From assembly GCA_012515125.1 (NCBI GenBank), contig JAAYYY010000081.1:1-58122 (forward strand): 58,122 bases of DNA. The letters are read 5' to 3'. Under the pieces are notes generated by a model that saw only the letters and a program-made list of their open reading frames with translations, was not told the origin of the DNA and ran no database searches. The stretch's first letter is position 1, and every line of letters starts with the position of its first letter. Below, piece after piece: positions 1 through 22,810 of this stretch. The position numbers were made by a program, and so were the translations under genes. This DNA comes from Chloroflexota bacterium (GTDB lineage: Bacteria > Chloroflexota > Anaerolineae > Promineifilales > Promineifilaceae).

Positions 1-2
1 CG

Positions 3-716
3 GCCCAGGCGCTGCCGGGCATCAACTCGGCCGAGCTGGCCGCCGCCATCGCCCGCCTGGAAAGCATCTTCCCCGACGAGCTGCGAGCGACGCTGCGCGA
101 GGCGACCGAGCAGTTGCCTGAACGAGCTGCAAAAGCGCATCGCCAGAAGATGCTGAGCCTGCTCCACCGCGCGGAGGTAGAGAGACGGCCCGTTTCCATC
201 CACTATCTGACCGGCTCTCGGGGAGGGCGCGGCCGCACCCGCACGGTGGAACCCTACGCCCTGATGCCCTACGGACGCTCGTGGCACCTCATCGCTTTCG
301 ACCATCACCGCCAGACGGTCTTACAGTTCAAGGTGGACCGCGTACAGGAAGCAACGCTGCTGGAGGGGCGCTACGAGATTCCCCGGGAGTTTGACCTCAA
401 CGCCTATCTCGGCGACGCCTGGGGATTGATGCGCGGCGCAGCCGGCGAGCCAGAGCACGTCGTGCTCCTGTTCAGGCCGCAGGCCGGGCGATGGGTCGCC
501 GAAGAGCAGTGGCACCATAGCCAGCAGAGCGAGGAGCTGCCCGACGGCCGCGTCCAGGTCGAGTTCTTCGTCGGCGTCACGCCCGAGATGGTGCGCTGGC
601 TGCTCTACTATGGGCCGGATGTGTACGTGGTCTCCCCGGAGTGGCTGCGAGAGGCAGTCGCGGCGGAACACCGCGCCGCGTTGGAGAAACAGGAGGCGAC
701 CCATTATGCCGGTTGA
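3..716 (+). CDS. WYL-domain transcriptional regulator, C-terminal portion (5' end lies upstream of the window)
   Basis: Frame 3 is open from base 3, with no stop before the annotated TTG at 114. The translation contains the WYL-domain core VSIHYLTGSRGG...RTVEPYALMPYGRSWHLIAFDHHRQTVLQFKVDRV followed by a WCX-like C-terminal region. No N-terminal HTH is visible, consistent with truncation by the window edge. The gene lies 90 nt upstream of cas3 and is co-directional with it. Confidence 0.8.
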   Translation, partial: AQALPGINSAELAAAIARLESIFPDELRATLREATEQLPERAAKAHRQKMLSLLHRAEVERRPVSIHYLTGSRGGRGRTRTVEPYALMPYGRSWHLIAFDHHRQTVLQFKVDRVQEATLLEGRYEIPREFDLNAYLGDAWGLMRGAAGEPEHVVLLFRPQAGRWVAEEQWHHSQQSEELPDGRVQVEFFVGVTPEMVRWLLYYGPDVYVVSPEWLREAVAAEHRAALEKQEATHYAG

Positions 717-806
717 CTACTGTGGAGATCCGTTTGTAGATGTGGGGCTGGCGACGCTGGCAGCCTTCGCCGGCAAACAGCACCCGCTCTCCTTTTACGG
801 TGACTG

Positions 807-3308
807 ATGGGCGACTGGGTTCCTTACTTCTATCAGGAACAGGTGTGTGAGTTTCTGCTTGGTGGCCGAAGTGTTGTCCTTCAGGCACCCACCGGTGCGG
901 GAAAGACGGCAGCGGCCCTGTTGCCGTTTTTGCACAGCCGCCAGAACCCGAGCCCAGACTGTTTTCCCCGCAAATGTATCTACTCCGTTCCTATGCGGGT
1001 GTTGGCTAACCAGTTCCACGAGGAATATAAAAAGATCACTCAGCGCGAGGGCTGGAAGGGAAAACTCAACGTCACCATTCAAACGGGTGACCGTCCCGAC
1101 GACCGCAAGCTAGAGGGCGATCTCATTTTCACGACAATCGATCAGACTTTGAGCAATTTTCTGAATATCCCCTACGCTCTGGGTACGGGCTCGGCCAACC
1201 TCAATGCCGGGGCGGTTATCTCCAGCTATCTTGTCTTTGACGAACTTCATCTCTATGACCCCGATTCCCTGTTGCCAACCACACTGGAGATGCTGCGGAT
1301 ACTGAAGGATGTGACACCCTTTGTGGTCATGACTGCTACCTTCTCGTCCTCCATGTTGAACGATCTGGCCCATCTGTTGGATGCAGAAGTAGTACCTCAG
1401 GATCATCACGCACGGTCGCGCATGGAGACAATCGGCGCACAGGTGGGCAAGCAGAGAAAGTTCTACACCGTGGATGAGCCCTTAACAGCGGCGCAGGTCC
1501 TTAACCATCGTGGTCGGCGCACCATCTGCATATGCAATACCGTCCGTTCAGCCCAGACCCTTTTTCAGGACTTGAAGCAGCTCTTGAAGAGTCAGGGCGA
1601 TGCGGAGACAGAGATTTGCCTGATACATAGCCGCTTCTATAAGGATGATCGCGACCGCAAGGAGGAATGGATTCGGGAGCAGTTTGGCTACCCGCAAAAA
1701 GAATATTCAGGCCCGCCATTAATCCTGATCGCTACGCAAGTTATCGAGGTGGGTGTAGATGCAACCTGTGACATCATGCACACAGAGCTAGCCCCAGCAG
1801 CAGCTCTGCTGCAACGGGCCGGGCGCTGCGCGCGTCGTGATCACGAAACAGGTGTCGTCTATATCTACCTACCTCGTGATGGCGAAGGGAATCCGGATTA
1901 CACGCCCTACTTCCTCCAGAGCCAATCTCGGGTGACATCCCGCGGCCGCTACCTGTGTGAGGCAACATGGGAAGCGCTCCAGGACCAGGAGTTCGCCGGT
2001 CGGCACATGTCTTTCAGTCTGGAGCAAAAGCTGATTGACCGGGTTCACACACCAATTGACCGCCAAATCCTGGAGGGAATAGCTGATACGCGGCTAAGCC
2101 GTCGGGACAAAATGCTGCGGGCCATGCAGTCACAGGAGCGTGGCCTAGCGCCTGATCTGATCCGGCAAAGCGACAGCCGATTCTTGTTCATCCATCCCTC
2201 GCCAGGTCGGGATGAAAGGCTACTGAGGAACCCGTGGGCCTATGACGGCTTTTCCTTCTATCCCGGGACGCTAGCTAAAGCATTTCAGGAGTTGTCTTCA
2301 AACGCGGGTGTCGAAGCGCCCTGGCTGATGCAAACCGCCCAGGCGACAGGACAGACCGACGAAGAAATACCGGCTCGACAGCAAATTGAATATCGCTGGC
2401 TTCCGCTGCAGGAGAGTAAGGAGGTGTATACGTCAGCGATCGTGGCCGTCCACCCATCTCTTGTGTCTTATGATACGGAGTTGGGGTTCCGCTTTGAGCC
2501 ATCTTACGGCAACCTTGAACCGCGCCGCCGGCCATCTCGACAACAGGCCCCAAGTTATAGCTACAGCCGCGAAACGTACGCCGAGCACGTTGCTGGCCTG
2601 TTCCGTGCCTATAACTCATCTCTCCGCGATCCAGAAAGCGGTAAATTCTGGTTACCGTTGAGGGATGAAATAGCTTACGTCATGCGTCGTCTAGAAAGCA
2701 AGCCGACATACGGGATGCCAGCCGGCATACTGGACGAAATGGCGCGCGCCCTTTTTGTCTGTCACGACCTGGGCAAGTTAAGCGTTACCTGGCAGGATTG
2801 GGCGCACCGGTGGCAGCGGCAATTAGGACGGTTCTATGGGGGAAGGGACATGAGCCTGCCTCCAGACTATATGGCGGCGCACACAGATTACGAGCCGACG
2901 GACGAGCAGAAGGCAGCACAAAGGCAGTTAGGAAAGCGGCCCAACCACGCTGGCGAGGGCGCGATGGCGGCGGTAAATCTGCTCTGGACACTAAGCCGGG
3001 AGAACAGACCACTGCTTCGAGCCGGGGTGACAGCCATCGCCCGGCACCATAACGCTTCAACCGACCGCTACCAAGCCTATAAAAGTCATCGCTCCGCTTC
3101 ACAGGCCTTTTCCGAAGCTCTGGAAGTCGTTGGATTGTCACTTGAGCTTACTAACCACATTTGGTGGGATCCCGATGGCGCGGAAGATCTTTCAGGGCTG
3201 CTCGTGCACTTCCACGGGACGAGTGTAGCAGAAGTATTGCTTTACCTGATCCTGGTGAGAATTCTACGCTTGGCCGATCAGCGCTCGCAGCTCGATCCTG
3301 GAGGATGA
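807..3308 (+). CDS. cas3: Cas3 helicase-nuclease with the SF2 helicase N-terminal and the HD nuclease C-terminal
   Basis: 833 aa. Helicase motifs: I LQAPTGAGKT, II VFDELHLYD (DExH), III VMTATFS, VI LLQRAGRCARR. C-terminal HD-type motifs: ETYAEHV, FVCHDLGKL, PNHAGEG, AIARHHNAS. Confidence 0.9.
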   Translation: MGDWVPYFYQEQVCEFLLGGRSVVLQAPTGAGKTAAALLPFLHSRQNPSPDCFPRKCIYSVPMRVLANQFHEEYKKITQREGWKGKLNVTIQTGDRPDDRKLEGDLIFTTIDQTLSNFLNIPYALGTGSANLNAGAVISSYLVFDELHLYDPDSLLPTTLEMLRILKDVTPFVVMTATFSSSMLNDLAHLLDAEVVPQDHHARSRMETIGAQVGKQRKFYTVDEPLTAAQVLNHRGRRTICICNTVRSAQTLFQDLKQLLKSQGDAETEICLIHSRFYKDDRDRKEEWIREQFGYPQKEYSGPPLILIATQVIEVGVDATCDIMHTELAPAAALLQRAGRCARRDHETGVVYIYLPRDGEGNPDYTPYFLQSQSRVTSRGRYLCEATWEALQDQEFAGRHMSFSLEQKLIDRVHTPIDRQILEGIADTRLSRRDKMLRAMQSQERGLAPDLIRQSDSRFLFIHPSPGRDERLLRNPWAYDGFSFYPGTLAKAFQELSSNAGVEAPWLMQTAQATGQTDEEIPARQQIEYRWLPLQESKEVYTSAIVAVHPSLVSYDTELGFRFEPSYGNLEPRRRPSRQQAPSYSYSRETYAEHVAGLFRAYNSSLRDPESGKFWLPLRDEIAYVMRRLESKPTYGMPAGILDEMARALFVCHDLGKLSVTWQDWAHRWQRQLGRFYGGRDMSLPPDYMAAHTDYEPTDEQKAAQRQLGKRPNHAGEGAMAAVNLLWTLSRENRPLLRAGVTAIARHHNASTDRYQAYKSHRSASQAFSEALEVVGLSLELTNHIWWDPDGAEDLSGLLVHFHGTSVAEVLLYLILVRILRLADQRSQLDPGG

Positions 3309-3309
3309 G

Positions 3310-5055
3310 ATGGATCTGGCGAATTTCCATGTAGACAAAGTGACAGGAACCCCTGCTGATACACTCCTGGCATTCGGACTGGCACAACTCATTGAACGAA
3401 TCGTTCCAGAATCGGCCGGCGATGTGGATCTGCGGATAGCGGATGTGGGCGATTCCTACCGCATCTCTCTACAAGGGGTTATCCGCCCGGAATGGGTGTC
3501 GCAGGCATCTTTCTTTCCGCTGTTCCAGGGTCTGGATACAGCCAAGAAGCAGTCTGCGCTACCAGAAGCACATCGGAAGGATTACGTTCGCCAGCAGCAG
3601 CGCAACCAGGCCTACTTCGAGGCGCGCGCGCGAGGGTTGACAGAGGCGGAACTGGCCGAACAGGGGCTGGCGCCACCTCCACCGGATTGGGCCGTTTGGG
3701 CTGTAATCAACCAGATGTCAGCGATCGATGCCTATAACGGACTAGCTGAACTTTGGTACAGCCATCGTGACTGCTTTCCGGCGCTGCTTACCATCATCCT
3801 ACAACTGTTCGGCACGCGCCCCAATGATTATGGTACAGCTCAAGCAGCGTGGACCGAACTTGCCAAAGCTCAGGGATTGACAGCCAAAGCCGTCGCAGCG
3901 CAGCTTCAGGTGGTGAATCCAGGCATGGGCAAAGGGGGCAACAAGAGCAAAGCGGACGGCCTGAGTATCGGCGGGCTTAGCGGCTTCTGGTTGGCCGAGT
4001 ATCTGAAATTCGCTGGGCTGTTTCAGTGCGCCCTGCCACGGACAGTCAAAGGGAAAAAGGACCGCAAAACATATATCTTGCGACCCAGAGTGCTCTCCTG
4101 GAGGACCCACGGACGAGTCCTGCCCCAGTTTCAGCAGAGCCTTCTTAGCAACTCGGCCATCAAGATGGATATTCTGGCCGTGCTTCAGTATTGCCGGGTC
4201 TTCCTGGAGCAGTGGAAAGCAGGCCAGGCAGGGGGCCGCTTTGCTTTCGCTCGTGGTCATCCCGGCGACCACATAGCAGGTGTCGAGGTCATTTACTATA
4301 AGCACCTGGGCAGCGCCCATGCCACGATGAATCTAAGCAGTCTGGCCCTACCACTGTGGCTCCCAGAAGTTAGAGACGTAGAAGACGCAACAATGTTTCT
4401 GGACCTGCTTGGGGAGCACAGCGCCATTGTCCGTGGCCTGGAGGAAGAGAAAGGCGATCAGTATGCGCTGCTACAGGAGTATCGCGACTTCCTCTCAGGA
4501 CGGGATCTGCACCCCTTCTATCGATTTACACGAGGCTACGCATCCCACGTCATGCGCACATTTGTAAGAGGCAAGATGCCTCGACAGTTTACCCTTGCCA
4601 ACCTGGAGGTATTGATCATGGCTCATAACCGGAATCTGGCCCCCATACTACAGAATGAAGGCTTCCAGCACATAGCCGAGGCTATCCGACGCAGCACAGT
4701 GATTCCCCAGTATCAGAAAGCACAGGGGCGAGATACCCTGTACGAGATTCGCTATGGGCTGGGCGATAAGTTGCTGCGTCATGCCCAATATGCCGATGAC
4801 TTTGTGCAAGAACTGAGCCGCTTCATCCACGACTATAATCATGAAAACGCCCAGAAAAGTGAAACCCGCAAACAACAGTATCGCAGCAACATTACCGTGG
4901 ACGATATAGCCGCCGTGGTTAGCTTGATTGACGAGTATGGCGCACCTACCGTCGCCAACCTGTTGGTCGCCTTTGGCTATGCCCGCGATCCGAAGATGGG
5001 TATGAAAGACATACCCGAACCGGATTTGGAAGAAGAAGCTGCTGAGTCGTTCTAA
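3310..5055 (+). CDS. Putative Cascade large subunit (Cas8-like), family not recognised
   Basis: 581 aa. The ATG lies 1 nt after the cas3 stop and is preceded by GGAGG. The size and the position between cas3 and cas7 fit a Cas8-type large subunit. I recognise no diagnostic motif. The C-terminal ~150 aa look helical and could double as a Cas11-like module. Confidence 0.5.
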   Translation: MDLANFHVDKVTGTPADTLLAFGLAQLIERIVPESAGDVDLRIADVGDSYRISLQGVIRPEWVSQASFFPLFQGLDTAKKQSALPEAHRKDYVRQQQRNQAYFEARARGLTEAELAEQGLAPPPPDWAVWAVINQMSAIDAYNGLAELWYSHRDCFPALLTIILQLFGTRPNDYGTAQAAWTELAKAQGLTAKAVAAQLQVVNPGMGKGGNKSKADGLSIGGLSGFWLAEYLKFAGLFQCALPRTVKGKKDRKTYILRPRVLSWRTHGRVLPQFQQSLLSNSAIKMDILAVLQYCRVFLEQWKAGQAGGRFAFARGHPGDHIAGVEVIYYKHLGSAHATMNLSSLALPLWLPEVRDVEDATMFLDLLGEHSAIVRGLEEEKGDQYALLQEYRDFLSGRDLHPFYRFTRGYASHVMRTFVRGKMPRQFTLANLEVLIMAHNRNLAPILQNEGFQHIAEAIRRSTVIPQYQKAQGRDTLYEIRYGLGDKLLRHAQYADDFVQELSRFIHDYNHENAQKSETRKQQYRSNITVDDIAAVVSLIDEYGAPTVANLLVAFGYARDPKMGMKDIPEPDLEEEAAESF

Positions 5056-5085
5056 CAGCTAAGGGATAATTAAGGAGATCATAAC

Positions 5086-6078
5086 ATGGCTAAGCAAGTA
5101 TATGCCCTTTCCGTTTCTGCCCAAGCTGTGCTCAACTTGCACAGCCTGAACAACGAAGGTGGAGAAGGTAATCAGATCCAGACCCGCATGGTGGATATCG
5201 TCTATTACGATAGCGATGGCCAGCCGATGCTGGCCAACGTCAACGCTATCAGCGGCGACATGTTCAAGCACATCCAGGCGGAGCATCTGCACCGCATCGC
5301 CACCGAAAAGAACTTGCCACTTTGTGCCGCCTGCCGTCGCTTCGACGCCAACCGTATGAGCGCCGATCCAGAGTTCCGCGAGTGGATCAAAGGCAAACCC
5401 ACCCAGGTGCAGGTCATTGACCGGCTGGTAAGCTACTGCGCGATAGACGACCTGGAAGGCAACTTGATTACGGAAGGAGCGCTTTCGGCGCCGCGTAAGA
5501 GCGTTGTCGAGTTTGGATGGGTCGTGGGCGTGCCTGGCGCTGTCACGTCTGAGGACTATTTTCATGTCAAGTACGCGCCGGATCGACGTGAGAAGCCAAG
5601 TGATAAAGACGAGCGTGAGGGCAACCTAGGGCAGGCTATCTTCCACCGGCCGGCCAACAGCGGGGTCTATGCCATTGTCAGTAACTTTGAGACGGCGCGC
5701 ATTGGTTACAACGATATTTCTCAGGCATATGTGTCAGACGTAGATCGAAAAACGCGCTATGCGGCCTTGCTAGAAAGCGTCCTCTACACATTTGTCGAGA
5801 TGAACGGGGCCATGCGTAACACGCAACTACCGCACCTCGTAGCCCTACACGGCGTGGTCGCCGTCAGCTACGGCGCCGCACCAGCCCCGACCATTAGCCC
5901 TCTCAATCCCAACTTCGTAACCGAAATAAAGGGGATCGCCGGCTCACTGAACAACTTGCACGGCGATGGACTCGTGAACGTGCACGAGTTTCGCAGCGTC
6001 CCGGAGCTGGCCGACATCATGAGTAGCCTGATTCAGGAGACCGAGCCGTACACGCTGCGAGTGGGCCAACCGGCCTGA
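5086..6078 (+). CDS. cas7: Cas7 backbone subunit, Csa2/DevR/Cst2-like (COG1857-type)
   Basis: 330 aa. AAGGAG lies 8 nt upstream of the ATG. The N-terminus AVLNLHSLNNEGGEGNQ...VNAISGDMFKHIQAEH matches my recollection of the Csa2/DevR/Cst2 Cas7 family (xLNxxxxxGN ... ISGxxxxH). Confidence 0.8.
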   Translation: MAKQVYALSVSAQAVLNLHSLNNEGGEGNQIQTRMVDIVYYDSDGQPMLANVNAISGDMFKHIQAEHLHRIATEKNLPLCAACRRFDANRMSADPEFREWIKGKPTQVQVIDRLVSYCAIDDLEGNLITEGALSAPRKSVVEFGWVVGVPGAVTSEDYFHVKYAPDRREKPSDKDEREGNLGQAIFHRPANSGVYAIVSNFETARIGYNDISQAYVSDVDRKTRYAALLESVLYTFVEMNGAMRNTQLPHLVALHGVVAVSYGAAPAPTISPLNPNFVTEIKGIAGSLNNLHGDGLVNVHEFRSVPELADIMSSLIQETEPYTLRVGQPA

Positions 6079-6088
6079 GGAGGCAACG

Positions 6089-6829
6089 GTGTGGTACATC
6101 GCCCAATATCACCCGTCTGCGCTCTTTAGTCTGCGGCCGGCCAATGCCACAACAAGTGGTGGCAAGACGCTGGTGACCCCAACACCGTACGCCGTGAAAA
6201 TGGCACTGCTGGATGTTGCCATTCGGGTCTATGGTCGCGCTTATGCTGAAAGCTGGTTTCCATATCTACGCGACCTTAAGGTGGCCATCCTGTTACCAGA
6301 TCACTTCGTCGTTATTAACACCTTCGTCAAGATCCTGCGACCTCATAAGACAGGTGCCAAGGACCATTTTGGCACGGGTCTGGAAGGTCCAATGGGCAAT
6401 ACGATCGCGTATCGGGAGCTGGTTCATTATGCAGGAGCTCTGCACTTGGCCATTCTGAGCGAGTCAGAGGACGCGCCTCCCCCTCTGACGACATTGCTAT
6501 CGCACATAAATTACCTTGGAAAACGGGGCGGTTTCGTGCAATGGCTAGGAACGCAGACCGTGGCGACGTTGCCGGATGATTATAGCCTCCTCAACCCAGA
6601 ACCAGGAGCCCCGTTCCTGGCCACTGGCCTCTTGCAGATGATGGACGACTGCGGACCGAAGATGACGTTTGCAGATGCCAATGTGTATAGCGGCAGGAGA
6701 CTTAGGGTAGGCGCGGCAAATGGGCGCCTCCTTCAACCTGTGGTGTTGCCATATCAATTGGAACGATCCAGCCGTTCCTTTAGTCTTTACGGTCGTATAT
6801 CAGACAAATCACGTTCGTCACTGTCTTGA
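6089..6829 (+). CDS. cas5: Cas5-like RAMP subunit
   Basis: 246 aa. GTG start 5 nt after GGAGG. The N-terminal segment LVTPTPYAVKMALLDVAI and the glycine-rich loop YLGKRGGFV are RAMP/Cas5-like. The position directly downstream of cas7 supports the call. Confidence 0.55.
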   Translation: MWYIAQYHPSALFSLRPANATTSGGKTLVTPTPYAVKMALLDVAIRVYGRAYAESWFPYLRDLKVAILLPDHFVVINTFVKILRPHKTGAKDHFGTGLEGPMGNTIAYRELVHYAGALHLAILSESEDAPPPLTTLLSHINYLGKRGGFVQWLGTQTVATLPDDYSLLNPEPGAPFLATGLLQMMDDCGPKMTFADANVYSGRRLRVGAANGRLLQPVVLPYQLERSSRSFSLYGRISDKSRSSLS

Positions 6830-6834
6830 AGACG

Positions 6835-7836
6835 ATGGCCTCTAATCTCACCATTACCCACCTACGCTTCGACGCCGTCGCCGAAGAAGGAATCCGGCTC
6901 AACGGTCTCATGGCCGGTAACTATCTGCGCAACGGCATGGCCTCGGTGATGTTGCGGGCGACCTGTACGGAGACGCACCGCACAGCCCGGCCGACGCCGG
7001 AACACGCCGCCCATTGCCCGGCCTGCTGGCTGCTGGCTGCCCATGTGGAGCCGGGTAAGGTCCGCCGGGCATACAGCATGGCGCCGCCGCTGCCGTCACG
7101 GCAGCAGGTGGAACCGGGCGAGCCGTTCTCCTTCGGCATCTCGCTTTACGGGGAAGGGCTGGGCTTCTTACCTTACTTTGTGCTGGCGCTGACAGAAGTC
7201 GGACGTCTGGGAGTAGGGCCAGGGAGAGGCAGTTTCCGCATCCGGCAGATACAGGCCGTCGAGCCGTTACGAGGGCTGATTCAGGATGTGCTGCGACCGG
7301 ATGCGCAACTCGTTCAGGTTCCGTCGCTCCATGTGGACTGGCAGGCGGCACATGCGGCAGCCTCGACACTTGCAGGTACGCTACGCCGCGACGAGGTCAC
7401 TCTGCACTTTCTGACGCCTGTTCGCCTGACCGAGCAGGAGCGGCTGGTGCGAATGCCCGATTTTGCCGTGCTTTTCCGGCGGCTTCTGGAACGCATTGAC
7501 GAGATGGCCCGCCAGTGGAATCTGGGCGGACGCCGCACCCCTGAGGAGCTGGAGTTACTGTACGGCTGCGCCGAACGTGTGCGCCTTGTAGATGCCGATG
7601 TGAAATGGATGGACTTAAAAAGCTACTCGGGTCGTACAAAGAAAGAGCGCTGGTTCAGTGGTTTTGTTGGTCAGGCAACGTACCGTTCCCAGGACTGGTT
7701 GAACCTATTACCATGGCTGGTCCTCGGCCAGGGTGTGCAGGTGGGGAAAGATACGGTTCGGGGAAATGGAATGTTCATGTTGGCACAGGGTGACGGGTAC
7801 TGGAACTGGCTTGGAGACTTGCAGGCAGTGTCGTAA
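6835..7836 (+). CDS. cas6: Cas6-like RAMP endoribonuclease candidate with a Cys/His-rich N-terminal insertion
   Basis: ATG at 6835, with an alternative TTG at 6826 that overlaps the cas5 stop. The C-terminal glycine-rich loop LGQGVQVGKDTVRGNGMF is typical of Cas6-type RAMPs. The N-terminal cluster is C-x16-C-x2-C with interspersed His (CTETHRTARPTPEHAAHCPAC). Confidence 0.55.
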   Translation: MASNLTITHLRFDAVAEEGIRLNGLMAGNYLRNGMASVMLRATCTETHRTARPTPEHAAHCPACWLLAAHVEPGKVRRAYSMAPPLPSRQQVEPGEPFSFGISLYGEGLGFLPYFVLALTEVGRLGVGPGRGSFRIRQIQAVEPLRGLIQDVLRPDAQLVQVPSLHVDWQAAHAAASTLAGTLRRDEVTLHFLTPVRLTEQERLVRMPDFAVLFRRLLERIDEMARQWNLGGRRTPEELELLYGCAERVRLVDADVKWMDLKSYSGRTKKERWFSGFVGQATYRSQDWLNLLPWLVLGQGVQVGKDTVRGNGMFMLAQGDGYWNWLGDLQAVS

Positions 7837-7890
7837 AAGAACAGCTTGACCGGCAGTAGACCAGCCAGAGACGGTCGGAGTAATTTCGAG

Positions 7891-8587
7891 TTACCTGTTC
7901 GGGTTCCTTAAGTGCTTCGTGCTAAAAGGCAGTCGAGCCCCAGTAAGTGCATCCATAACTCTGCCGGCTTCCGCCTTCGTCCAATACCCTCTCTTCGGCT
8001 TCTGGATGCCAAACTTCTTGCAGCGCTTCTCCACCGCCTGGTCCGACACGCCGAACAGCTTTGCGACCTCCGTCACCGGCATCCCCCAGACCAGCCCCTC
8101 CAGTTCATCCGCCGTTACGTTGAACCGGCGGCTAGCCTAGTCCGCGCACTTCGCCGAGCAGTATCTCCGGTGATCCTCGGGCGCCGGCGTCTCAAACGGC
8201 TTCCCGCAACGCTGGCACGTCGACGACACCGGCGCGGCCGGCCTGCCCGGGATACACGCTCGCAGCTCGGCGGGCGTGACCAGCGCTAGGTTCTCCGGCC
8301 GGACGCCGGTCCGTCGCCGTTCAGAAACAGACCTTCTCACCGGCAGCGAGCCGCCGGCCGAACTCGACGGACATCACATGCCGCTGGAGCGCGGCATAGC
8401 CGTCCCGTCGGGCGAGCGGATGGCTCGGGCAGGAGAAGTGCAGGTAGCCGCCGTGATTGTGCAGGTTGAGGGAGCTGAGGTCAAGGGCAAAGCGGCCGGC
8501 CGTCAGATGGGCATTCCCCTGGGGCCTTTCTGCTTCTCCATGTTCCGCAGCGCGGCTTCGGCAATCGTGCCCACGGCCCGGAACAGG
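7891..8587 (-). pseudogene. Decayed HNH-endonuclease-like gene: 5'-truncated by the IS, with frameshift(s) and an in-frame TAG
   Basis: One minus-strand frame is open from the IS junction (8587) and reads ...NHGGYLHFSCPSHPLARRDGYAALQRHVMSVEFGRRLAAGEKV. This matches the GY..P.HP.A..GYV.EHR.VM...GR.L...E.V module found upstream of HNH cores. Where HH.NG is expected, the frame breaks (stop at 8321-8323) and no HH is visible in any frame. A second frame continues RPENLALVTPAEL...CQRCGKPF...RRYCSAKCAD. An in-frame TAG at 8137-8139 is followed in the same frame by an HTH-like tail VTEVAKLFGVSDQAVEKRCKKFGI. Confidence 0.65.
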
Positions 8588-8611
8588 CTGTGCTGGCTAC
8601 TTCGCTTATCC
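8588..8611. repeat. IS terminal inverted repeat (left)
   Basis: CTGTGCTGGCTACTTCGCTTATCC, read directly. Pairs with 10025-10048. Confidence 0.8.
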
Positions 8612-8820
8612 AGAGCTGGAGTCACCGGAGTTTTCTAGCACACGCGCCTTCCTTTGCCAGGCTGGCAGCAGTTCTACTCGTTCGCATGCGGACAATGAAT
8701 GCTCTGATGAGGTAACCGATGTAACAACCAGGACGCCGGAATGGACCAACAGAGAAAGCGATCGCCGGCCATCCGCAACTACCTGGGAGCCTATCTCTCT
8801 TGTTTCCGATGCCCGGACAA

Positions 8821-9939
8821 TCAGTGCAGATTAGGGGCGCGAGAGTACGAGTGGTGAAGGCCACCGAGAATGGCCGTAGATGTAATCTTCGTGGCATCTC
8901 CGTCCGCCACCGGTTGAAAAGTGGGCTCGACCGGGTCTGGAATATGCTGCCGGAGCCCTTGATGCGGTCGAAGGTGATTATAGAAGCCGACGTACTCCTT
9001 CACCGTCCGCTGTAGCTGCTGTCGGTTCAGAATGAGCATGTGATCGACGCACTCTCGCTTCAAGCTTCCGATAAGGCGCTCACAGACAGCATTGGCACGT
9101 GGAGACTGAACAGGCGTCTTCAACTCTCTGATGCCCGCGCTCCTGGCGACGGCTGAAAACAGAAACCCGTACTTCTTGTCCCGGTCGCGAATCAGGTATC
9201 TCGGCCCCATGTCCCAAGGAGTCGCTTCCCTTAGCTGTTGCGCCGCCCAGTTGTCAGTAGGTGAGCGGGTCACAGCTGCGTGGCCAATGCGCCTCGTTTT
9301 CAGTTCGATGATGAGAAAGATGTAGAGCGGCCGAAATAGCAGGTCGTGGATGACAGTGAAATCGCACGCCCAGATGCCGGCAGTGTGATGCCTGAGGAAG
9401 GTGGCCCAGGTCTGACAAGAATTTCTGCCGCGCTTCGGCAGGTATCGCTGTACCGTCCGTTTGCTGATTTTGACGCCCAACTTCAGGAGTTCGCCGCGAA
9501 TGCGCTCTGCGCCCCACAAGCGATTCTCAGCCGCCATTTCTTTGATGAGGTCGATGGTTTCCTGGGGGATACGCGGCTCCGGCTTCCCTTTTCGCGATTT
9601 GCGTCGCCAGTACAAGCGGAATAGGTCCCGATGCCAGCGAAGAAGAGTGTCCGGCTGGACGATGTGCAGCGTGTTCTGCCAGTATCGGGTGAAATGAGCC
9701 AACAAGACGAGACGAATCCGGTCACCATTCGTTAGTTTCGGCCGTTTGACCTGCCGCCGGAGGACGATCAGTTGCTGACGAAGCATTGCGTTCTTGGCGA
9801 CCAGATCCGAACGACTGCGTGCCATGTCGGCTAGGATTCCGACCGCGAACGAGGCCGTCGTCGGTTTGGTCCAGTGTTTGAGGGTCTGATTCAGCCTGCT
9901 GCCAAGTAAGGCCCAGAGGATGACGATGTGAATAGCCAT
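8821..9939 (-). CDS. DDE transposase with integrase-core (rve) domain, IS3/IS481-superfamily-like
   Basis: 372 aa. HTH-like segment LWGAERIRGELLKLGVKISKRTVQRYL. Candidate DDE residues lie in WACDFT, IRDRDKKYG and ANAVCERLIGSLKRE. The C-terminal YNHLRPHQGL motif is typical of rve transposases. Confidence 0.85.
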   Translation of the reverse strand: MAIHIVILWALLGSRLNQTLKHWTKPTTASFAVGILADMARSRSDLVAKNAMLRQQLIVLRRQVKRPKLTNGDRIRLVLLAHFTRYWQNTLHIVQPDTLLRWHRDLFRLYWRRKSRKGKPEPRIPQETIDLIKEMAAENRLWGAERIRGELLKLGVKISKRTVQRYLPKRGRNSCQTWATFLRHHTAGIWACDFTVIHDLLFRPLYIFLIIELKTRRIGHAAVTRSPTDNWAAQQLREATPWDMGPRYLIRDRDKKYGFLFSAVARSAGIRELKTPVQSPRANAVCERLIGSLKRECVDHMLILNRQQLQRTVKEYVGFYNHLRPHQGLRQHIPDPVEPTFQPVADGDATKITSTAILGGLHHSYSRAPNLH

Positions 9940-10024
9940 GGCCGCATCGTATTACAGGATCGCGCAGCATGGCAGCCCAAATGGGTTGGCGTGGCACTTT
10001 GGAATCCTGGACGGAAATGACGTC

Positions 10025-10048
10025 GGATGAGTTAAGTAGCCAGCACAG
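10025..10048. repeat. IS terminal inverted repeat (right)
   Basis: The plus strand GGATGAGTTAAGTAGCCAGCACAG is the reverse complement of CTGTGCTGGCTACTTAACTCATCC. Confidence 0.8.
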
Positions 10049-10730
10049 GGAGGCCAGAGAGCCGCTTTATACGACCGACGTCCACGCATTTCTGGCCCAG
10101 GATATAACGCTTGTCGTGGAGGCTGCCTCGCAGGCTGTGTGCAGGGAGATTGCGCCGCAGGTGCTGGTGCTTGTCGCGGGAAAGGACCTCATGCCGATGA
10201 GTGTGGGGGCTTTTGCCGACGAGAGTTTTCTGCAACAGATGCGCGACCTGGCCCGCGAGCACGGGCGCTGCGTTTACCTGCCGTCGGGGGCGATTGGCGG
10301 GCTGGACGCACTCTCGGCCGGCGCTATCGACGAATTGGACGAGGTTGTCCTGACGACGACGAAGCCACCTCACGCGCTGGAGCGTGCGAGTATGGAGCAG
10401 GACGTGGATCTGACGACCATTACGGAGCCAACCTGTATTTACGATGGTCCCGCGATAGAGGCCGTGCGCCTTTTTCCCAAGAACGTCAACGTGGCTGCGG
10501 CGCTCAGTCTGGCGGGCGCCGGCGTAGAGCGAACACGGGTGCGAATCGTGGCCGATCCAGAGGCTACGGGGAATAGCCACCGCGTGGAGGCTCGCGGCCG
10601 TCTCGGGGCGTTCACGATCGAGCTACATCTGCACCCGTCGCCCGACAACCCGCGTACCAGTTATCTGGCTGTGCTGAGCGCCATCAGAACGTTGAAGAAT
10701 CTGAGCGAGCCGATACGGTTTGGCGGCTGA
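10049..10730 (+). pseudogene. nadX: L-aspartate dehydrogenase (NadX-like), 5'-truncated at the IS right end
   Basis: The C-terminal two thirds are present: LPSGAIGGLDALSAG, FPKNVNVAAALSLAG, DPEATGNSHRVEARG, DNPRTSYLAVLS. The N-terminal Rossmann GxGxxG segment is absent. The annotated ORF (9969-10730) takes its first 26 codons, including the ATG, from inside the IS. Confidence 0.75.
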
Positions 10731-12040: not shown

Positions 12041-13747
12041 CTACGGAGCAGCGCCGGTTTCATCCAGCAGATAGACGCGCGCTTCATAGGGCCGGAGGAG
12101 CAGCCGGCCGGGGCTTTCGCCCGCCTCGGCCGGGTAGTTGGCGATGAGAAGACGGGCGTTGTCCAGGGAGGGGCCGGAGGGGGCGCTGAAGGCAGTCGTA
12201 TCCGCACTGAAGTTGAGGATGACGAGCAGGCGCTGCCTGTCGAGGGTGCGCGTGAAGGCGTAGATGCGCTCGTCGCCGTCGTCAATCAGCTCGTAGCTGC
12301 CATAGACGATAATCGGATGCGTTTTGCGCAGGCGGATCAGCCGCTGGTAATAGGCGAAGATGGAGTCGGGATCGCGGCGGGCCTCGGCCACGTTGATGGT
12401 AGTGTAGTTGGGGTTGACTTTGATCCACGGCGTGCCGGTGGTGAAGCCGGCATTGGGGCTGTCGTCCCACTGCATCGGGGTGCGCGCGTTGTCGCGGCTC
12501 CTGGCGTAGATCATCTCCATCACGCGCTCCGGCGCCATGCCCCGCTCTTCGACGTAGTCGCGGTACATGTTCAGCGTCTCGATGTCCCGGTAGTCGTCAA
12601 TGGAGGGAAAGCGCACGTTGGTCATGCCGATCTCTTCGCCCTGGTAGATGTAGGGCGTGCCCTGCAGCATGTGGACGAAGGTCGCCAGCATCTTGGCCGA
12701 TTCCACCCGGTAGCGCCCGTCATCGCCGAAGCGCGAGACGGCCCGCGGCGTGTCATGGTTGGACAGGTAAAGACTGTTCCATCCCATACCGGCAAGGTCG
12801 TTCTGCCAGCGGGTCATGACGCGCTTCAGATCGGCCAGCGGCGCCGGCCTGTAGAACCACTTAGAGGGGCTGCCCGGCTCCACGTCGAGGTCCATGTGCT
12901 CGAACTGGAAGACCATGTTGAGCGACCCTGTTTCCTCGTGGGTAAGCGTAGCGGCCTGGGCCGTCAGCACGTTAGGCGTCTCGCCGACGGTGATCAGGTC
13001 GTAGGCGGAGAGCACCTCGCGCTTCATCTCCTGCAGGAACTCTTCGAGGCGCGGGCCGTGGATGAAGTATTGGCCGCCGAACTCGTAGCGCTCGCCCGTC
13101 ACCGGCGGCGCGTCCGGCAGTCCGGGCACCTTGGAAAGCATGTTGATGACGTCCATGCGGAAGCCGTCGACACCCTTCTGCAGCCACCAGTGCATCATGT
13201 CGTAGATGGCAGCGCGCACGCGGGGGTTCTCCCAGTTCAAGTCAGGCTGCTTCTTCGAGAAGAGGTGCAGGTAATATTCGCCGGTGGCCTCGTCATATTC
13301 CCACGCCGGGCCGCTGAAGTAGGAGCGCCAGTTGTTGGGCTCACGGCCGTCTTTGCCGGGTCGCCAGATGTAGAAATCACGGTAAGGGTTGTCTTTGGAT
13401 TTGCGCGACTCCACAAACCAGGGGTGCTCGTCTGAGGTGTGGTTGACGACGAGGTCCATCATTAGCTTGATGCCGCGCCGGTGCAGCCCGTCGCGCAGCG
13501 CCTCCCAGTCGGCCATCGTCCCAAATTCGTCCATGATGGCCCGGTAGTCGCTGATATCGTAGCCGTTGTCGTCGTTGGGGGATTTGTAGACGGGGGAGAG
13601 CCAGACGACGTCGATACCCAGCTCCTGCAGGTAGTCGAGCTTCTGAATAATGCCCTGCAGGTCGCCGATGCCGTCGCCGTTGCTGTCGGCGAAGCTACGC
13701 GGATAAATCTGGTAGACGACGCTCTCTTTCCACCACGCTCGTTTCAT
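12041..13747 (-). CDS. GH13 oligo-1,6-glucosidase / alpha-glucosidase
   Basis: 568 aa. The N-terminus WWKESVVYQIYPRSFADSNGDGIGDLQGIIQKLDYLQELGIDVVWLSPVYKSPNDDNGYDISDY is the classic GH13 subfamily-31-type signature. Also present: GFRMDVINM, GETP and NHD. Confidence 0.9.
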   Translation of the reverse strand: MKRAWWKESVVYQIYPRSFADSNGDGIGDLQGIIQKLDYLQELGIDVVWLSPVYKSPNDDNGYDISDYRAIMDEFGTMADWEALRDGLHRRGIKLMMDLVVNHTSDEHPWFVESRKSKDNPYRDFYIWRPGKDGREPNNWRSYFSGPAWEYDEATGEYYLHLFSKKQPDLNWENPRVRAAIYDMMHWWLQKGVDGFRMDVINMLSKVPGLPDAPPVTGERYEFGGQYFIHGPRLEEFLQEMKREVLSAYDLITVGETPNVLTAQAATLTHEETGSLNMVFQFEHMDLDVEPGSPSKWFYRPAPLADLKRVMTRWQNDLAGMGWNSLYLSNHDTPRAVSRFGDDGRYRVESAKMLATFVHMLQGTPYIYQGEEIGMTNVRFPSIDDYRDIETLNMYRDYVEERGMAPERVMEMIYARSRDNARTPMQWDDSPNAGFTTGTPWIKVNPNYTTINVAEARRDPDSIFAYYQRLIRLRKTHPIIVYGSYELIDDGDERIYAFTRTLDRQRLLVILNFSADTTAFSAPSGPSLDNARLLIANYPAEAGESPGRLLLRPYEARVYLLDETGAAP

Positions 13748-13901
13748 GTTCAGAGCACTCCTTTTTGGGCGTAATTGAGGTCTGTAGCAACCGGTCTGGC
13801 CTCCTAGTAGGCCTCATGTGGAACCGATTCTCAGGGCTGCAACTATATCACGGGGCCGGGCTGGAAGCCCGCCCTCCACGGGCAGCCGTTTAATTTGATC
13901 C

Positions 13902-13930
13902 TTGACAAATGTGTACAGAAAGCTTATCTT
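13902..13930 (+). promoter_or_regulatory. Sigma70-like promoter candidate for the GH94 operon
   Basis: TTGACA (13902-13907), a 17-nt spacer, then TATCTT (13925-13930), in the 426-nt divergent intergenic region. Confidence 0.4.
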
Positions 13931-14004
13931 TTTCTTAGGTATTTTGCTATTTTCAGGGTCAGAAACCGGCAACTCTCCGAGTTTCCGTTTTTTTAGGCCA
14001 GGAG

Positions 14005-14018
14005 GTGAAACGTTTCAC
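14005..14018. promoter_or_regulatory. LacI-family-type palindromic operator candidate
   Basis: Perfect 14-bp palindrome GTGAAACGTTTCAC. It matches the generic LacI/GalR operator pattern TGxAAxCGxTTxCA. It lies between the promoter candidate and the GH94 start (14174). A LacI-family gene sits at 31122. Confidence 0.5.
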
Positions 14019-14173
14019 TTGCGGCCCGACCAAGCGAACACCTCTCTAAATCAACCAATTACCAGACAGCGCGCAGAGCAGCGCGGCCTGACGGCGGTGC
14101 GCCCACCCTTGCGAGGGTGCAGGGTTGTCCGGACCGCAGCGATTGAGCAGCCTCCCATTGTCTGGAGCGAGCG

Positions 14174-16555
14174 ATGGACCGGAAATTCGCCAGCGCCTAC
14201 GGCTATTTCTCCGACAACGGACGCGAGTACGTTGTCACGACCCCCTGCACGCCCCGCCCCTGGGGCAACATCATCAGCAACGGCGACTATGGCCTGATGG
14301 TCTCGCAGAACGGCTCCGGCTATAGCTGGCGCGGCAACGCGGGGCAGAACCGGATCACCCGTTCCTTTCAGGACCTGATCAAAGATAACTGGGGCAAATA
14401 CTTCTACATCCGCGACCGCCAAAGGAACGTTTTCTGGTCGGCTACCTACAAGCCGGTCATGCACCCCTTCCAATCGTTTTCCGCCGTCCACGGCATCGGT
14501 TATTCCGTCTTCAGCCAGGAAATCGAGGGGATAACGAGCCGGCTGACCGTCTTTGTTACGCCCGAAGACCCGGTGGAAGTCTACCGGCTGGAGCTAAAAA
14601 ACGGCGGCGAAGAAGCCCGCATGCTGGACGTCACCAGTTACGCCGAATGGGGGCTGGGCTTCGCGCCCGACGAGCACCGGGAGTTCCACAAGCTGTTCGT
14701 CGAGACCCGGGCCGACGTGGAGCGGGGCGCCGTCTACGCCCGCAAATGTCTGTGGGGCTTCCCGGACGAAGAAGGGCGGCACAACAACGTGGACTGGCCT
14801 TACACGGCGTTCATGGCGACGAGCGAGCCGCTGCGCTCCTTCGACTGTGACAAAGAGAGCTTCTTCGGCCTCTACAACAACGACGACCGACCGCAGGCGA
14901 TGCGCGACGAGCGGCTGGCAGGGCGTTGCGGGCGCTTCGGCGACCCCATTGCCGCGCTGCAGGTCGCGGTTGAGCTGGCGCCGGGAGAGTCCCGGACCAT
15001 CGTCTTTACGCTGGGCGCCGCCGAGGACGGTAAGGAAGACGCGGCTGAGCTGGCCAGTCGCTACACCGGCGTGGAGCAGAGCGCCGCCGCGCTGGAGGAC
15101 GTACACGCCTTCTGGTCGCGCTTCATTGACACGGAAAAGGTGGAGACGCCCGACGAAGCGCTCAATTTTATGACCAACGTCTGGCTCAAATACCAGTCGA
15201 TATCCTGCCGGCTGTGGGGCAAATCGGCGTTCTACCAGGTCTCGGCCGGCTATGGCTACCGCGACCAACTCCAGGACAGTCAGATATTCCTGGTCAGCGA
15301 GCCGGAGTACGCCCGGAAACAGCTTCTGATGCACGCCGCGCAGCAGTTCGTCGAAGGCGACGTGCTCCACTGGTGGTTCACGATTCGCGGCGGCGGGCCG
15401 CGCACCAACTGCTCCGACGATCTGCTCTGGCTGCCGTTTATTCTCGACGCCTACCTCAAAGAGACGGCTGATTATGGCGTTCTCGACGAGCGGATTCCCT
15501 ACCTGAACGGGCCGGAGGAGCCGCTGTACAACCACTGCAAACGGGCCATCGAGCGTTCTTTCTCCCGCTTTTCGCCGCGCGGCGTTCCGCTGATGGGCGA
15601 TCACGACTGGAACGACGGGCTGAGCGCGGTGGGCACCCTGTTGAAGGGAGAGAGCTTCTGGGTCGGTGAGTTTTTGTACATGATCCTCGGCAGCTTCATC
15701 CCCCTGGCGCGGCGGCGAGGCGACGAGGCGTTTGCCCGGCGCTGTGAGGTCGTCCGCGAGAGCCTGCGGGAAGCGGTGAACCGCTACGGATGGGACGGCG
15801 ACTGGTATCTGCAGGCGACGACCGACGCAGGGCTTCTGCTCGGCTCGGCGGAAAACGAAGAAGGGAAGATTTTCCTGATGCCCAACATCTGGGCCGTGAT
15901 CAGCGGCATCACCGACGAGGAGCGGGCGCAGACGGCGATGGCCTCTGTGACGCGCCATTTGCTAAAAGATTACGGCACGCTGTTGAACTATCCGGCGTTC
16001 ACCAGGCCCCGGCCCGATATTGGCTACGTTACCCGCTACGCGCCGGGGCTGCGCGAAAACGGCGGCGTCTACACCCACGCCGCCACTTGGTCGGTCTGGG
16101 CCTACACCCTCGTGGGGCAGCCGGAGCTGGCCTACGAAGCCTACCGGCGGATCTGCCCGCCCAACCGCAGCGCGGATATTGAGAGGTACTGGGCCGAGCC
16201 GTACGTGACGCCGGGCAACATCGACGGGCCGCTTTCGGAATATTACGGGCGGGCCGGCTGGACATGGTACACCGGGTCGTCGCAGTGGCTGCACCGCGTC
16301 GCCACCCATTGGATTCTGGGCATCAGGCCGCAGGAGGACGGGCTGCTGGTCGATCCGTCGATCCCAGCGGAGTGGCCCGGCTACCGGATCACCCGGCGGT
16401 TCCGCAACGCCGTCTACGAGATCGACGTGCGGAATCCGGACGGGGTCAGCCGGGGCGTGCGCTCGGCGACGGTAGACGGCCAGCCGCTGGACGGCAATCT
16501 GCTCCCGGCGTTTGGCGATGGCAAGACACATCAGGTGGAGATCATTATGGGTTGA
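14174..16555 (+). CDS. GH94 glycoside phosphorylase (cellobiose/chitobiose-phosphorylase-like size and N-terminus)
   Basis: 793 aa. N-terminus YGYFSDNGREYVVTTPCTPRPWGNIISNGDYGLMVSQNGSGYSW, and RTNCSDDLLWLP around the expected catalytic Asp. Confidence 0.85.
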   Translation: MDRKFASAYGYFSDNGREYVVTTPCTPRPWGNIISNGDYGLMVSQNGSGYSWRGNAGQNRITRSFQDLIKDNWGKYFYIRDRQRNVFWSATYKPVMHPFQSFSAVHGIGYSVFSQEIEGITSRLTVFVTPEDPVEVYRLELKNGGEEARMLDVTSYAEWGLGFAPDEHREFHKLFVETRADVERGAVYARKCLWGFPDEEGRHNNVDWPYTAFMATSEPLRSFDCDKESFFGLYNNDDRPQAMRDERLAGRCGRFGDPIAALQVAVELAPGESRTIVFTLGAAEDGKEDAAELASRYTGVEQSAAALEDVHAFWSRFIDTEKVETPDEALNFMTNVWLKYQSISCRLWGKSAFYQVSAGYGYRDQLQDSQIFLVSEPEYARKQLLMHAAQQFVEGDVLHWWFTIRGGGPRTNCSDDLLWLPFILDAYLKETADYGVLDERIPYLNGPEEPLYNHCKRAIERSFSRFSPRGVPLMGDHDWNDGLSAVGTLLKGESFWVGEFLYMILGSFIPLARRRGDEAFARRCEVVRESLREAVNRYGWDGDWYLQATTDAGLLLGSAENEEGKIFLMPNIWAVISGITDEERAQTAMASVTRHLLKDYGTLLNYPAFTRPRPDIGYVTRYAPGLRENGGVYTHAATWSVWAYTLVGQPELAYEAYRRICPPNRSADIERYWAEPYVTPGNIDGPLSEYYGRAGWTWYTGSSQWLHRVATHWILGIRPQEDGLLVDPSIPAEWPGYRITRRFRNAVYEIDVRNPDGVSRGVRSATVDGQPLDGNLLPAFGDGKTHQVEIIMG

Positions 16556-16665
16556 ACGTGACAGGAGATGACTGAAGGGCCGACCGGCCGGTATAGGGGT
16601 GGCGGCAGTCCCACAAGGAGCCGCCCGAGATGGTGTATCGGCAAAAGCATAAGGAGTTTAGAAGG

Positions 16666-18132: not shown

Positions 18133-18147
18133 GCGTAATCATGACGG

Positions 18148-18181
18148 GAAGGAGGGCGCTGCCGGTGCAGCGCCCTCCTTC
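18148..18181 (+). terminator. Strong stem-loop downstream of the SBP gene (attenuator or terminator candidate, no U-tract)
   Basis: Perfect 14-bp stem GAAGGAGGGCGCTG / CAGCGCCCTCCTTC with the 6-nt loop CCGGTG. It starts 16 nt after the stop codon. Confidence 0.5.
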
Positions 18182-18202
18182 ACAAGATCGGAGTGACGGC
18201 TA

Positions 18203-18869
18203 ATGAGCCCGGTCATTGAAGCTCAATTCTACACGCCTCGCCTGCCGGTCAACATCGTGGCGCTGCCCAACGGCTACGAGGCACAGGCAATGCGCGCCCT
18301 GATCGAAATGCTCGGCGGCGTGGTGACCATCCACTGGATTGGCACGCCGGGGGATTTCCTCAAGGTGTTGGGCCAGGGCGAGACGGCGCCCGTTACCTGT
18401 TGATCGCCGGGCACGGGGACGTAGCGGAGGGATTCTGGCTGGACCGCTACGCCGATTTCATCGACACCTTGATGCTGCGCGGCGAATACCTGCCGGCCGA
18501 GGCCATCGAGCCGGTCGTGGATCTGCCGGGCTGCACGGTCATCGCCACTTCCTGCGGAGGCGGCAGCGCGGCGATAGGCCGGGCCTTTACGCAGAATGGG
18601 CGCATCAATGCTTACATCGGATCTCGCGTCCATCCCGGCGGCGAGATCCACGTTTTATCGTGAACTTCTTCTTCAACGTGATGGTCAAGAAAATGTCGGA
18701 TAGAGACGCCTGGTACGGGGCGATGGTGGCGACCGATCATCCCAAGATCTACCAGACGAGCCTGTACCTGCCGGGCGGCATTGAAGAACGGTACGAGGGC
18801 GTTGAGGGCGGGGCGCCGGTATCTGTGCAGCCGGCCGAACCGTACCTGGTCTCTCACGCCGAGGAATAA
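18203..18869 (+). pseudogene. Hypothetical protein gene split over three frames (two apparent frameshifts)
   Basis: ORF 18203-18403 ends ...GQGETAPVTC*. The next frame continues RYLLIAGHGDVAEG... to 18663. A third frame continues ...FIVNFFFNVMVKKMSDRDAW... to 18869. Together they read as one ~220-aa protein. Confidence 0.55.
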
Positions 18870-18897
18870 GAGGCCAGCCTAACGCCGAGGGTAAAGA

Positions 18898-21792: not shown

Positions 21793-21796
21793 GCCG

Positions 21797-22807: not shown

Positions 22808-22810
22808 GCC

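Follow-up and report, generated by a model that had tools for sequence, protein, structure and literature searches.

The first 7,836 nucleotides of contig JAAYYY010000081.1 from a Chloroflexota bacterium, a stretch of 58,122 nucleotides analysed here in full and hereafter called the window, very probably belong to a complete, adaptive type I CRISPR-Cas locus, of which they form the regulator and effector half, with Cascade subunits closest to those of subtype I-A. Six genes run here in one direction and encode a WYL-domain regulator, Cas3, Cas8, Cas7, Cas5 and Cas6; open reading frames (ORFs) and domain or profile matches agree on all of these identities, which had been proposed in an earlier account of the same DNA (the sequence-only reading). 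That account took the genes for an interference-only module with neither adaptation genes nor an array. For the window its observation is accurate, as we found no cas1, cas2 or cas4 homologues and no tandem or spaced repeat array anywhere in the 58 kb, but for the locus it fails: an adaptation module and a CRISPR array lie directly to the left of base 1 in near-identical public contigs, which makes the interference-only appearance an artefact of where the window begins. What defines a type I system was found in full, namely an intact Cas3, cas8 together with cas7, cas5 and cas6, and an adjacent adaptation module and array, these last outside the window in contigs 99.8-100% identical to it. Besides being complete, the locus is probably active.

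The locus beyond the window edge

The window begins inside the regulator gene (1 to 716, + strand), since the WYL frame is open from base 3. The full gene encodes 338 aa in four near-identical contigs (L001, L004, L005 and L006), and its residues 106-338 map to window positions 15-713 by tblastn; the edge removes the first 105 codons, the helix-turn-helix (HTH) included, from a gene that had been treated as complete. These contigs come from a query of public assemblies with the exact Cas3 protein, which yielded 23 contigs. Contig L004 is 100% identical to window positions 1-8031 and reaches 2.4 kb further left, L005 is 99.9% identical, and L001, at 99.82% identity across 13.3 kb, has in common with the window an insertion sequence (IS) and the nadX, DUF2214, hydrolase and amylase genes that follow.

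Left of window base 1, the near-identical contigs carry the rest of the WYL gene, then a divergent cas1-cas2-cas4 module and then the array. In the contigs that are 99.8-100% identical to the window, three genes with their respective Pfam domains, cas1 (347 aa), cas2 (93 aa) and cas4 (196 aa), begin 205 nt upstream of the WYL gene on the strand opposite to it. The full order is array, leader, cas4-cas2-cas1 (- strand), the 205-nt divergent region, WYL, a 33-aa ORF, and cas3-cas8-cas7-cas5-cas6 (+ strand). Each of the nine cas ORFs has its full length and is collinear with its counterparts in relatives. The sequence-only reading had itself pointed to the DNA upstream of base 1 as the place where an ordinary locus cut by the window would reveal itself, and the decisive half of what it described, the adaptation module with its array, is there. 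No locus that begins with the first base of a window can be said to be missing a component.

It had also been proposed that these genes form an orphan effector using a distant array, or that they are what remained after the neighbouring IS deleted cas4-cas1-cas2 and the array. The 58 kb without adaptation genes or array, the position of an rve-type IS only 750 nt downstream of cas6, and the existence of relatives whose adaptation genes or array lie downstream of cas6, where the IS sits, speak for such readings. Yet contigs 99.8-100% identical carry cas1-cas2-cas4 and array immediately upstream, the same divergent upstream arrangement is seen in two relatives (L007 and L010) that both lack the IS, and the IS, with its ends at 8588 and 10048, interrupts nadX and not the cas locus. 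Both proposals are thereby refuted for the population sampled, and we give either the very slightest of chances.

The array and its repeat

The array is best seen in L005:9-338, where five 37-nt repeats (GTTTCAGTACTCGCTATCGAGTCGAATGCTCTGAGGC) spaced 73-74 nt apart run into the contig end beyond cas4. Contig L001 begins within a variant copy of this repeat, and a variant ending ...GCTCCTAGAC occurs in both L001 and L014. Four more metagenome contigs carry the repeat with other spacers, and a search of the window allowing up to 3 mismatches found no copy of it. Comparison of the array regions (L005:1-346, L015:3438-3548, L016, L017 and L014) revealed that the cas4-proximal spacer differs between L005 and L015, the latter from a strain that is ~97% identical. 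This difference at the leader end between close strains indicates recent acquisition, and it agrees with a leader next to cas4 and with spacers still being taken up. In L017 an array ends next to a gene with an HExxH motif, which may mean a trailer end or else a further array.

When both orientations were compared, the repeats of the window genome and of four relatives (L007-L010) proved alike if read so as to end ACUGAAA(C/G); on the printed strand, the repeat of L011 ends ACUGAAAU. A search for a Cas6-type hairpin had been suggested, and each of the four repeats that we folded (window genome, L007-L009) forms a stem of 4-5 bp ending 8 nt before the 3' end. The stems themselves differ in sequence (ACUCG/CGAGU, ACCC/GGGU and AUCC/GGAU), and the argument for a Cas6 site draws on this conservation of stem position with changed pairs, not on folding energy. 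Such a geometry is the usual substrate of Cas6 enzymes that produce 8-nt 5' handles, and we infer cleavage there on these grounds.

Effector genes

The six ORFs span 114(3)-716, 807-3308, 3310-5055, 5086-6078, 6089-6829 and 6826/6835-7836, with intergenic gaps of 90, 1, 30 and 10 nt between WYL and cas3, cas3 and cas8, cas8 and cas7, and cas7 and cas5, respectively. The tight packing reported earlier is thereby borne out, except that the 90-nt "gap" holds the 33-aa ORF. Shine-Dalgarno (SD) motifs precede cas8 (GGAGG), cas7 (AAGGAG) and cas5 (GAGGAGG) as described, but not cas3 or either of the two candidate cas6 starts.

Cas3 (807..3308, + strand) is a single ORF of 833 aa, and of 805-836 aa in relatives, in which a superfamily 2 helicase (residues ~1-400) is followed by a C-terminal HD nuclease (~590-833). 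It matches Pfam DEAD, Helicase_C and Cas3-like_C_2, with a weak C-terminal Cas3_HD, and exceeds the cutoff of TIGR01587 cas3_core (6.9e-51; 173 bits against a cutoff of 102). As had been noted before, the helicase and HD motifs are intact: APTGAGKT (Walker A), DELH, TAT, QRAGRCAR (motif VI) and an HD pair at residues 653-654 are all present. The usual domain order of Cas3 is HD first, then helicase, and in I-A loci the two activities are encoded by cas3' and then cas3''. The nearest solved relative of the helicase is the P. furiosus I-A Cas3' (7TR8, 3e-26). The C-terminal 433 residues match stand-alone Cas3'' HD profiles (PDLC00940 at 5e-8, PDLC01254 at 6e-8 and Cas3a2 at 1.6e-3) and no Cas3g profile, the Cas3g models aligning to the helicase half only; that N-terminal half scores on Cas3g profiles about as it does on others. 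TIGR02621 covers no more than model positions 14-406 of 854, with a score of 197.6 (cutoff 400), and a PDB sequence search with the HD segment gave no match. Because the C-terminus matches stand-alone Cas3'' profiles and none of Cas3g, the simplest reading of the protein is that neighbouring cas3' and cas3'' genes were fused, rather than that a part was grafted from I-G. Such a fusion suggests a simple route to the C-terminal-HD layout that is otherwise associated with I-G.

Cas8 (3310..5055, + strand), the 581-aa large subunit, had been said to match nothing recognisable. It does match the PADLOC profile PDLC01417, labelled 'Cas8a, CAS-I-A, effector_LS', with an E-value of 1.8e-67 over profile positions 63-544 of 555. 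No match was found in Pfam, in NCBIfam, among Cas8b sequence profiles, or in the PDB with either the single sequence or a 33-sequence profile; for Cas8 and Cas5 alike, PDB relatives were found by structure comparison alone. An AlphaFold2 (AF2) model of Cas8 (predicted local distance difference test score, pLDDT, 86.8; predicted template-modelling score, pTM, 0.85) was compared with the PDB by Foldseek, and the only matches at E<0.001 were the I-B Cas8b chains 8H67_L and 8IP0_J and the I-A Cas8a chain 7TR6_C, the next match having an E-value of 0.12. Likeness to 7TR6_C and to 8H67_L is about equal, with 8H67_L being the best match and aligned over the whole length.

No separate csa5/cas11 ORF was found in the window or in any of the contigs L001-L013, and a small subunit may instead be encoded within cas8. 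An in-frame start at M437 would yield a putative cas11-like protein of 145 aa (4618..5055, + strand) and is preceded by GGAGG at 4605-4609, the DNA at 4603-4620 being CTGGAGGTATTGATCATG (GGAGG-N8-ATG). At the homologous cas8 site of 8 of 8 loci, namely the window locus and seven fetched relatives (L007-L013) whose Cas8 identity to that of the window is 40-63%, an in-frame ATG follows an SD-like GGAG(G) at a distance of 5-8 nt. In L009 the encoded amino acids are altered (LTEIIM) and GGAG-N6-ATG is kept, and in L008 the ATG is shifted by one codon with the SD shifted along. Residues 357-556 of Cas8 are all helical in the AF2 model, and L432 and E433 are invariant in 33 homologues. Cas11 is reported to be translated from within the large-subunit gene in subtypes I-B, I-C and I-D (PMC9638904), and Cas8a1, Cas8b and Cas8c large subunits with an extended helical C-terminus were described in 2011 from loci without a small-subunit gene (PMC3150331). 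The conserved internal SD and ATG suggest a hidden Cas11-like small subunit, and so offer a testable candidate for a concealed cas11 in an I-A-like system.

Cas7 (5086..6078, + strand), which would form the Cascade backbone, belongs to the Csa2/DevR family as first proposed. It exceeds the cutoffs of Pfam DevR (PF01905, 3.2e-64) and of TIGR01875, and falls under that of the I-A equivalog TIGR02583 (Csa2; 3.8e-29, score 101.8, cutoff 212.6). A 26-sequence profile of Cas7 reaches only I-A Cas7 structures in the PDB (3PS0 at 1e-7, 9CP1 at 2e-7 and 7TR6 at 5.5e-5), and none from I-B. The predicted binder of the CRISPR RNA (crRNA) 5' handle, Cas5 (246 aa; 6089..6829, + strand), matches PADLOC PDLC01390 'Cas5a, CAS-I-A' over its full length (4.1e-61) and has no match in Pfam or NCBIfam, nor in the PDB by single sequence or profile. 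The best Foldseek matches of its AF2 model (pLDDT 86.6) are the P. furiosus I-A Cascade chain 7TR6_P (6e-8, TM 0.57) and then 4MJK of A. fulgidus.

Cas6 (6835..7836, + strand; 333 aa from the ATG), a predicted pre-crRNA endoribonuclease, matches Pfam CRISPR_Cas6 (4.1e-14) and PADLOC PDLC01477 (1.9e-61), and AF_1859_N and CRISPR_Cas6 domains are precomputed on an identical protein. The overlap of cas5 and cas6 claimed earlier depends on the start codon chosen: an alternative TTG at 6826 gives a 4-nt overlap, whereas the ATG at 6835 used in the gene calls on six contigs leaves a 5-nt gap. Unrelated small genes sit between cas5 and cas6 in L010 and L013, so that the adjacency of the two genes does not amount to a Csb2-type functional linkage. 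The inserts are reminiscent of regulatory or toxin-antitoxin-like pairs: L010:13559-14551 holds DUF6883, DUF4926 and an HTH_3 gene, and L013:13821-14585 a 103-aa ORF along with a TumE-domain gene.

The WYL regulator and the 33-aa ORF

The 3' two-thirds of the regulator gene contained in the window encode WYL and WCX domains (Pfam, 3.6e-18 and 1.9e-19), and the protein matches the PADLOC profile for CRISPR-associated WYL proteins at 3e-37. Ahead of cas3, 8 of 8 loci encode an HTH-WYL-WCX protein. In this the regulator is like other WYL regulators found beside CRISPR-Cas loci, and in the window lineage it differs from them in having its tail as a separate ORF. This 33-aa ORF (706..806, + strand) has its own GGAGG SD, is called as a gene on the six near-identical contigs, fills the 90-nt gap, and ends in a stop that overlaps the start of cas3 (TGATG), so that cas3, which has no SD of its own, starts where the ORF stops. 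Its C-terminus reads ...SFYGD. In five relatives (L007, L008, L011, L012 and L013) the WYL frame continues as far as cas3, its product ending ...FFGD, FYGG, FFGS or DFFA, and the 3' ends of these genes (for instance L007:5330-5490 and L008:7360-7505) share a tail of the form F-x-x-F-F/Y-G-D/G. Because the WYL proteins of relatives carry a similar tail up to cas3, we take the tail to be out of frame with the WYL body in the window lineage, and the ORF is probably the split-off C-terminal tail of the regulator, coupling translation into cas3. The split was seen in six contigs from different samples, and the conserved tail codons may also serve as the SD of cas3.

Recurrence and annotation

The seven relatives comprise metagenome-assembled genomes (MAGs) of an Anaerolineae, a Caldilineaceae and an Oscillochloris bacterium and four metagenome contigs. 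In 7 of 7 the order WYL/WCX-cas3-cas8-cas7-cas5-cas6 is kept, always together with cas1-cas2-cas4, which answers the earlier question of whether the five-gene order recurs. The adaptation genes are divergent and upstream in L007 and L010, and directly downstream of cas6 in the others. Arrays of 5 to 67 repeats with units of ~36-37 nt were present in the DNA fetched for 5 of the 7; of the remaining two, one lies on a contig that breaks off shortly past cas4, and in the other the 1.5 kb behind cas4 holds no array.

The Cas8 family numbers at least 809 clusters at 90% identity, and among the relatives listed all that carry names are 'hypothetical' and all with a stated organism are Chloroflexota. 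For Cas5 there are 1362 clusters at 90% identity, and named members of the two families are nearly all 'hypothetical' among the matches listed; Cas7 has 4271 relatives under the names 'DevR family' or 'Cst2'. This variety is common in Chloroflexota and catalogued in curated cas profiles such as the set carried by PADLOC-DB, and is poorly annotated in general databases. Pfam and NCBIfam being blind to its Cas8 and Cas5, automated pipelines will under-call such loci. For biology the significance of these results is small, and for method it is larger.

Placement among type I subtypes

Judged by its sequences, the locus is an I-A-like variant, neither a canonical I-A system nor a new kind. Compared with the I-A systems of P. 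furiosus, Sulfolobus and Thermoproteus (7TR6/7TR8, 9CP1 and 3PS0), its Cas8 and Cas5 match CAS-I-A profiles, its Cas5 model is nearest to 7TR6_P, its Cas7 profile reaches I-A structures only, its helicase is nearest to P. furiosus Cas3', and its Cas6 carries an AF_1859_N domain. The predicted 8-nt handle of the window locus also resembles the AUUGAAAG-type handles of I-A. On the other hand, Cas3' and Cas3'' are joined in one polypeptide, there is no csa5/cas11 gene, and Cas8 is a 581-aa protein with a helical C-terminal domain, as against the 333-aa P. furiosus chain; the host is bacterial (Chloroflexota), and the effector genes form one operon headed by a WYL regulator. We say "I-A-like" and not canonical I-A because neither the split cas3 nor the separate csa5/cas11 of that subtype is found.

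With I-B (Cas8b Cascade; 8H67 and 8IP0) the locus shares the best Cas8 fold match (8H67_L), the lack of a separate cas11 gene, the conserved internal cas8 start and a Cas7 of the DevR/Cst2/Csa2 superfamily. In contrast, no Cas8b, Cas5b or Cas7b profile is the best match of any window protein, the order has cas3 first and cas6 last, and the domains of Cas3 are reversed with respect to the usual order. Hallmarks of I-G had led the sequence-only reading to propose a mosaic. In common with I-G (formerly I-U; the Cas3g-Cas8g-Cas7-Csb2 loci of Thioalkalivibrio and Geobacter; PMC9638904) are the order cas3-cas8-cas7-cas5/6, a C-terminal HD and the absence of a cas11 gene, whereas Cas5 and Cas6 are separate with no Csb2 fusion (PMC9638904), Cas7 is of the DevR/Csa2 and not the Csb1 type, and Cas8 is Cas8a and not Csx17/Cas8g. 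No Cas8u/Cas8g or Csb1 profile matched the window Cas8 and Cas7. In addition, cas4 and cas1 of the window lineage are separate genes and the C-terminal half of Cas3 does not align to Cas3g profiles. With Cas8, Cas5, Cas7 and the helicase all nearest to I-A, the mosaic is not supported.

Whether such loci should instead be regarded as a distinct type I variety meriting its own name, with an I-A-derived Cascade, a single-chain Cas3 with C-terminal HD, no cas11 gene, an obligatory WYL protein and cas1-cas2-cas4 order, is a matter on which the evidence divides. Across Anaerolineae, Caldilineaceae and Oscillochloris, 8 of 8 loci keep the layout; its Cas8 and Cas5 families are large, nearly all 'hypothetical' and without a Pfam or NCBIfam model; and the split cas3 and separate csa5 that define I-A are both absent. 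No description of the layout was found in the literature on I-A-like Chloroflexota systems, a search that excludes the 2015 and 2020 classification papers and so does not show that one is absent, and the 2025 classification text and supplement make no mention of it. Against this, curators had already filed the family under I-A, as is evident from CAS-I-A profiles that match Cas8 and Cas5 at ~1e-61 to 1e-67, and the combination of a long large-subunit C-terminus with the lack of a separate small-subunit gene has been on record for Cas8a1/8b/8c since 2011 (PMC3150331). We consider a separate variety unlikely, though by no means negligibly so, and the earlier suggestion of an unclassified type I variant survives weakly: the fused cas3 and the missing cas11 gene speak for it and the CAS-I-A profile matches against it. 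A little more plausible, if still tentative, is that the cassette is a coherent, widespread and unnamed lineage of type I, which arose from I-A when cas3' and cas3'' were fused and cas8 took in the small subunit. In that case the Chloroflexota cassette would be an evolutionary intermediate between the archaeal I-A layout and those of I-B and I-G.

In transposon-associated type I systems (CRISPR-associated transposons, CAST) the effector sits inside a transposon that carries tns or Mu genes, and an active Cas3 and adaptation genes are usually missing; an I-A/Mu-like variety is mentioned in PMC12669027. We rejected a CAST or Mu-associated reading of the present locus: the sole mobile gene nearby is the rve transposase of an IS that is not conserved in relatives, and Cas3 and cas1/2/4 are intact.

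Integrity of the locus

Several observations weigh against a complete and active I-A-like locus in the window genome. The array was seen in contigs 95.6-99.9% identical to the window, and the 100%-identical L004 ends within cas4. Taken singly, none of the repeat hairpins exceeds shuffled sequence in stability (z -0.2 to -0.9), and an exact-match search of IMG/VR with two spacers returned 0 matches. The WYL tail is a separate ORF in the window lineage, which could alter regulation, and the filing under I-A follows profile labels and nearest solved structures, not a phylogeny.

One could see here a decaying or silenced locus of horizontal origin. The GC content of cas3-cas6 is 56.3%, compared with 63.5% for positions 10,049-58,122, an IS and a pseudogene lie just downstream, and the WYL tail is in a separate frame. 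The nine full-length cas ORFs with intact catalytic motifs, the conservation of the cas locus at 99.4-100% across six samples and the leader-end spacers that differ between close strains nevertheless make decay improbable. The earlier statement that the cas region is richer in AT than everything right of 10.05 kb holds for the average and is otherwise overstated: the cas region is not the sole AT-richer island, since positions 55-57 kb are also low at ~54% GC. Within this second patch lies an Mrr-type restriction endonuclease gene (Mrr_N and Mrr_cat, 3e-28; 55115-56533, - strand).

Proposed mechanism

From the gene content and the models, we infer the cleavage site, the composition of the complex, the internal Cas11 and the role of the WYL protein as follows. 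The array would be transcribed from the cas4-proximal leader, and Cas6 would cut the 37-nt repeat at the 3' base of the small conserved hairpin to leave the 8-nt 5' handle ACUGAAAC. Cas5, several copies of Cas7, Cas8 and Cas6 would then assemble on the crRNA, with a Cas11-like subunit, probably from the internal cas8 start, likely also in the complex. Cas8 would read the protospacer-adjacent motif (PAM), an R-loop would form, and the single-chain Cas3, helicase then HD, would unwind and degrade the target DNA. Cas1-Cas2-Cas4 would insert new spacers at the leader end, and the HTH-WYL-WCX protein may control the divergent promoters.

Neighbouring genes

Between cas6 and the IS lies the remnant of a small gene (7950-8330, - strand), with a zinc-ribbon-like CxxC...CxxxC followed by an HTH (...MPVTEVAKLFGVSDQAVEKRCKKFGI...) and an in-frame stop; its sole database match is a weak RWP-RK-like HTH. 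The IS is 1.46 kb long (8588-10048), is bounded by 24-nt inverted repeats (8588-8611 and 10025-10048, 88% complementary), encodes an IS481/IS3-like rve transposase (8821-9939, - strand), and is absent at this position in 7 of 7 relatives. Its right end lies in the 5' part of nadX (ORF 9969-10730), whose product lacks the first 30-50 residues of aspartate dehydrogenase profiles. Removal of the adaptation module by this element was considered and rejected: the inverted repeats bound a 1.46-kb element in the nadX 5' end, and the cas locus is uninterrupted.

The rest of the window is made up of sugar-utilisation and transport genes. An ordinary chromosomal context is provided by a carbohydrate-utilisation cluster at 12041-23000, which encodes a GH13 alpha-amylase and a GH94 phosphorylase together with two solute-binding proteins, of which one has the unusual length of 964 aa.

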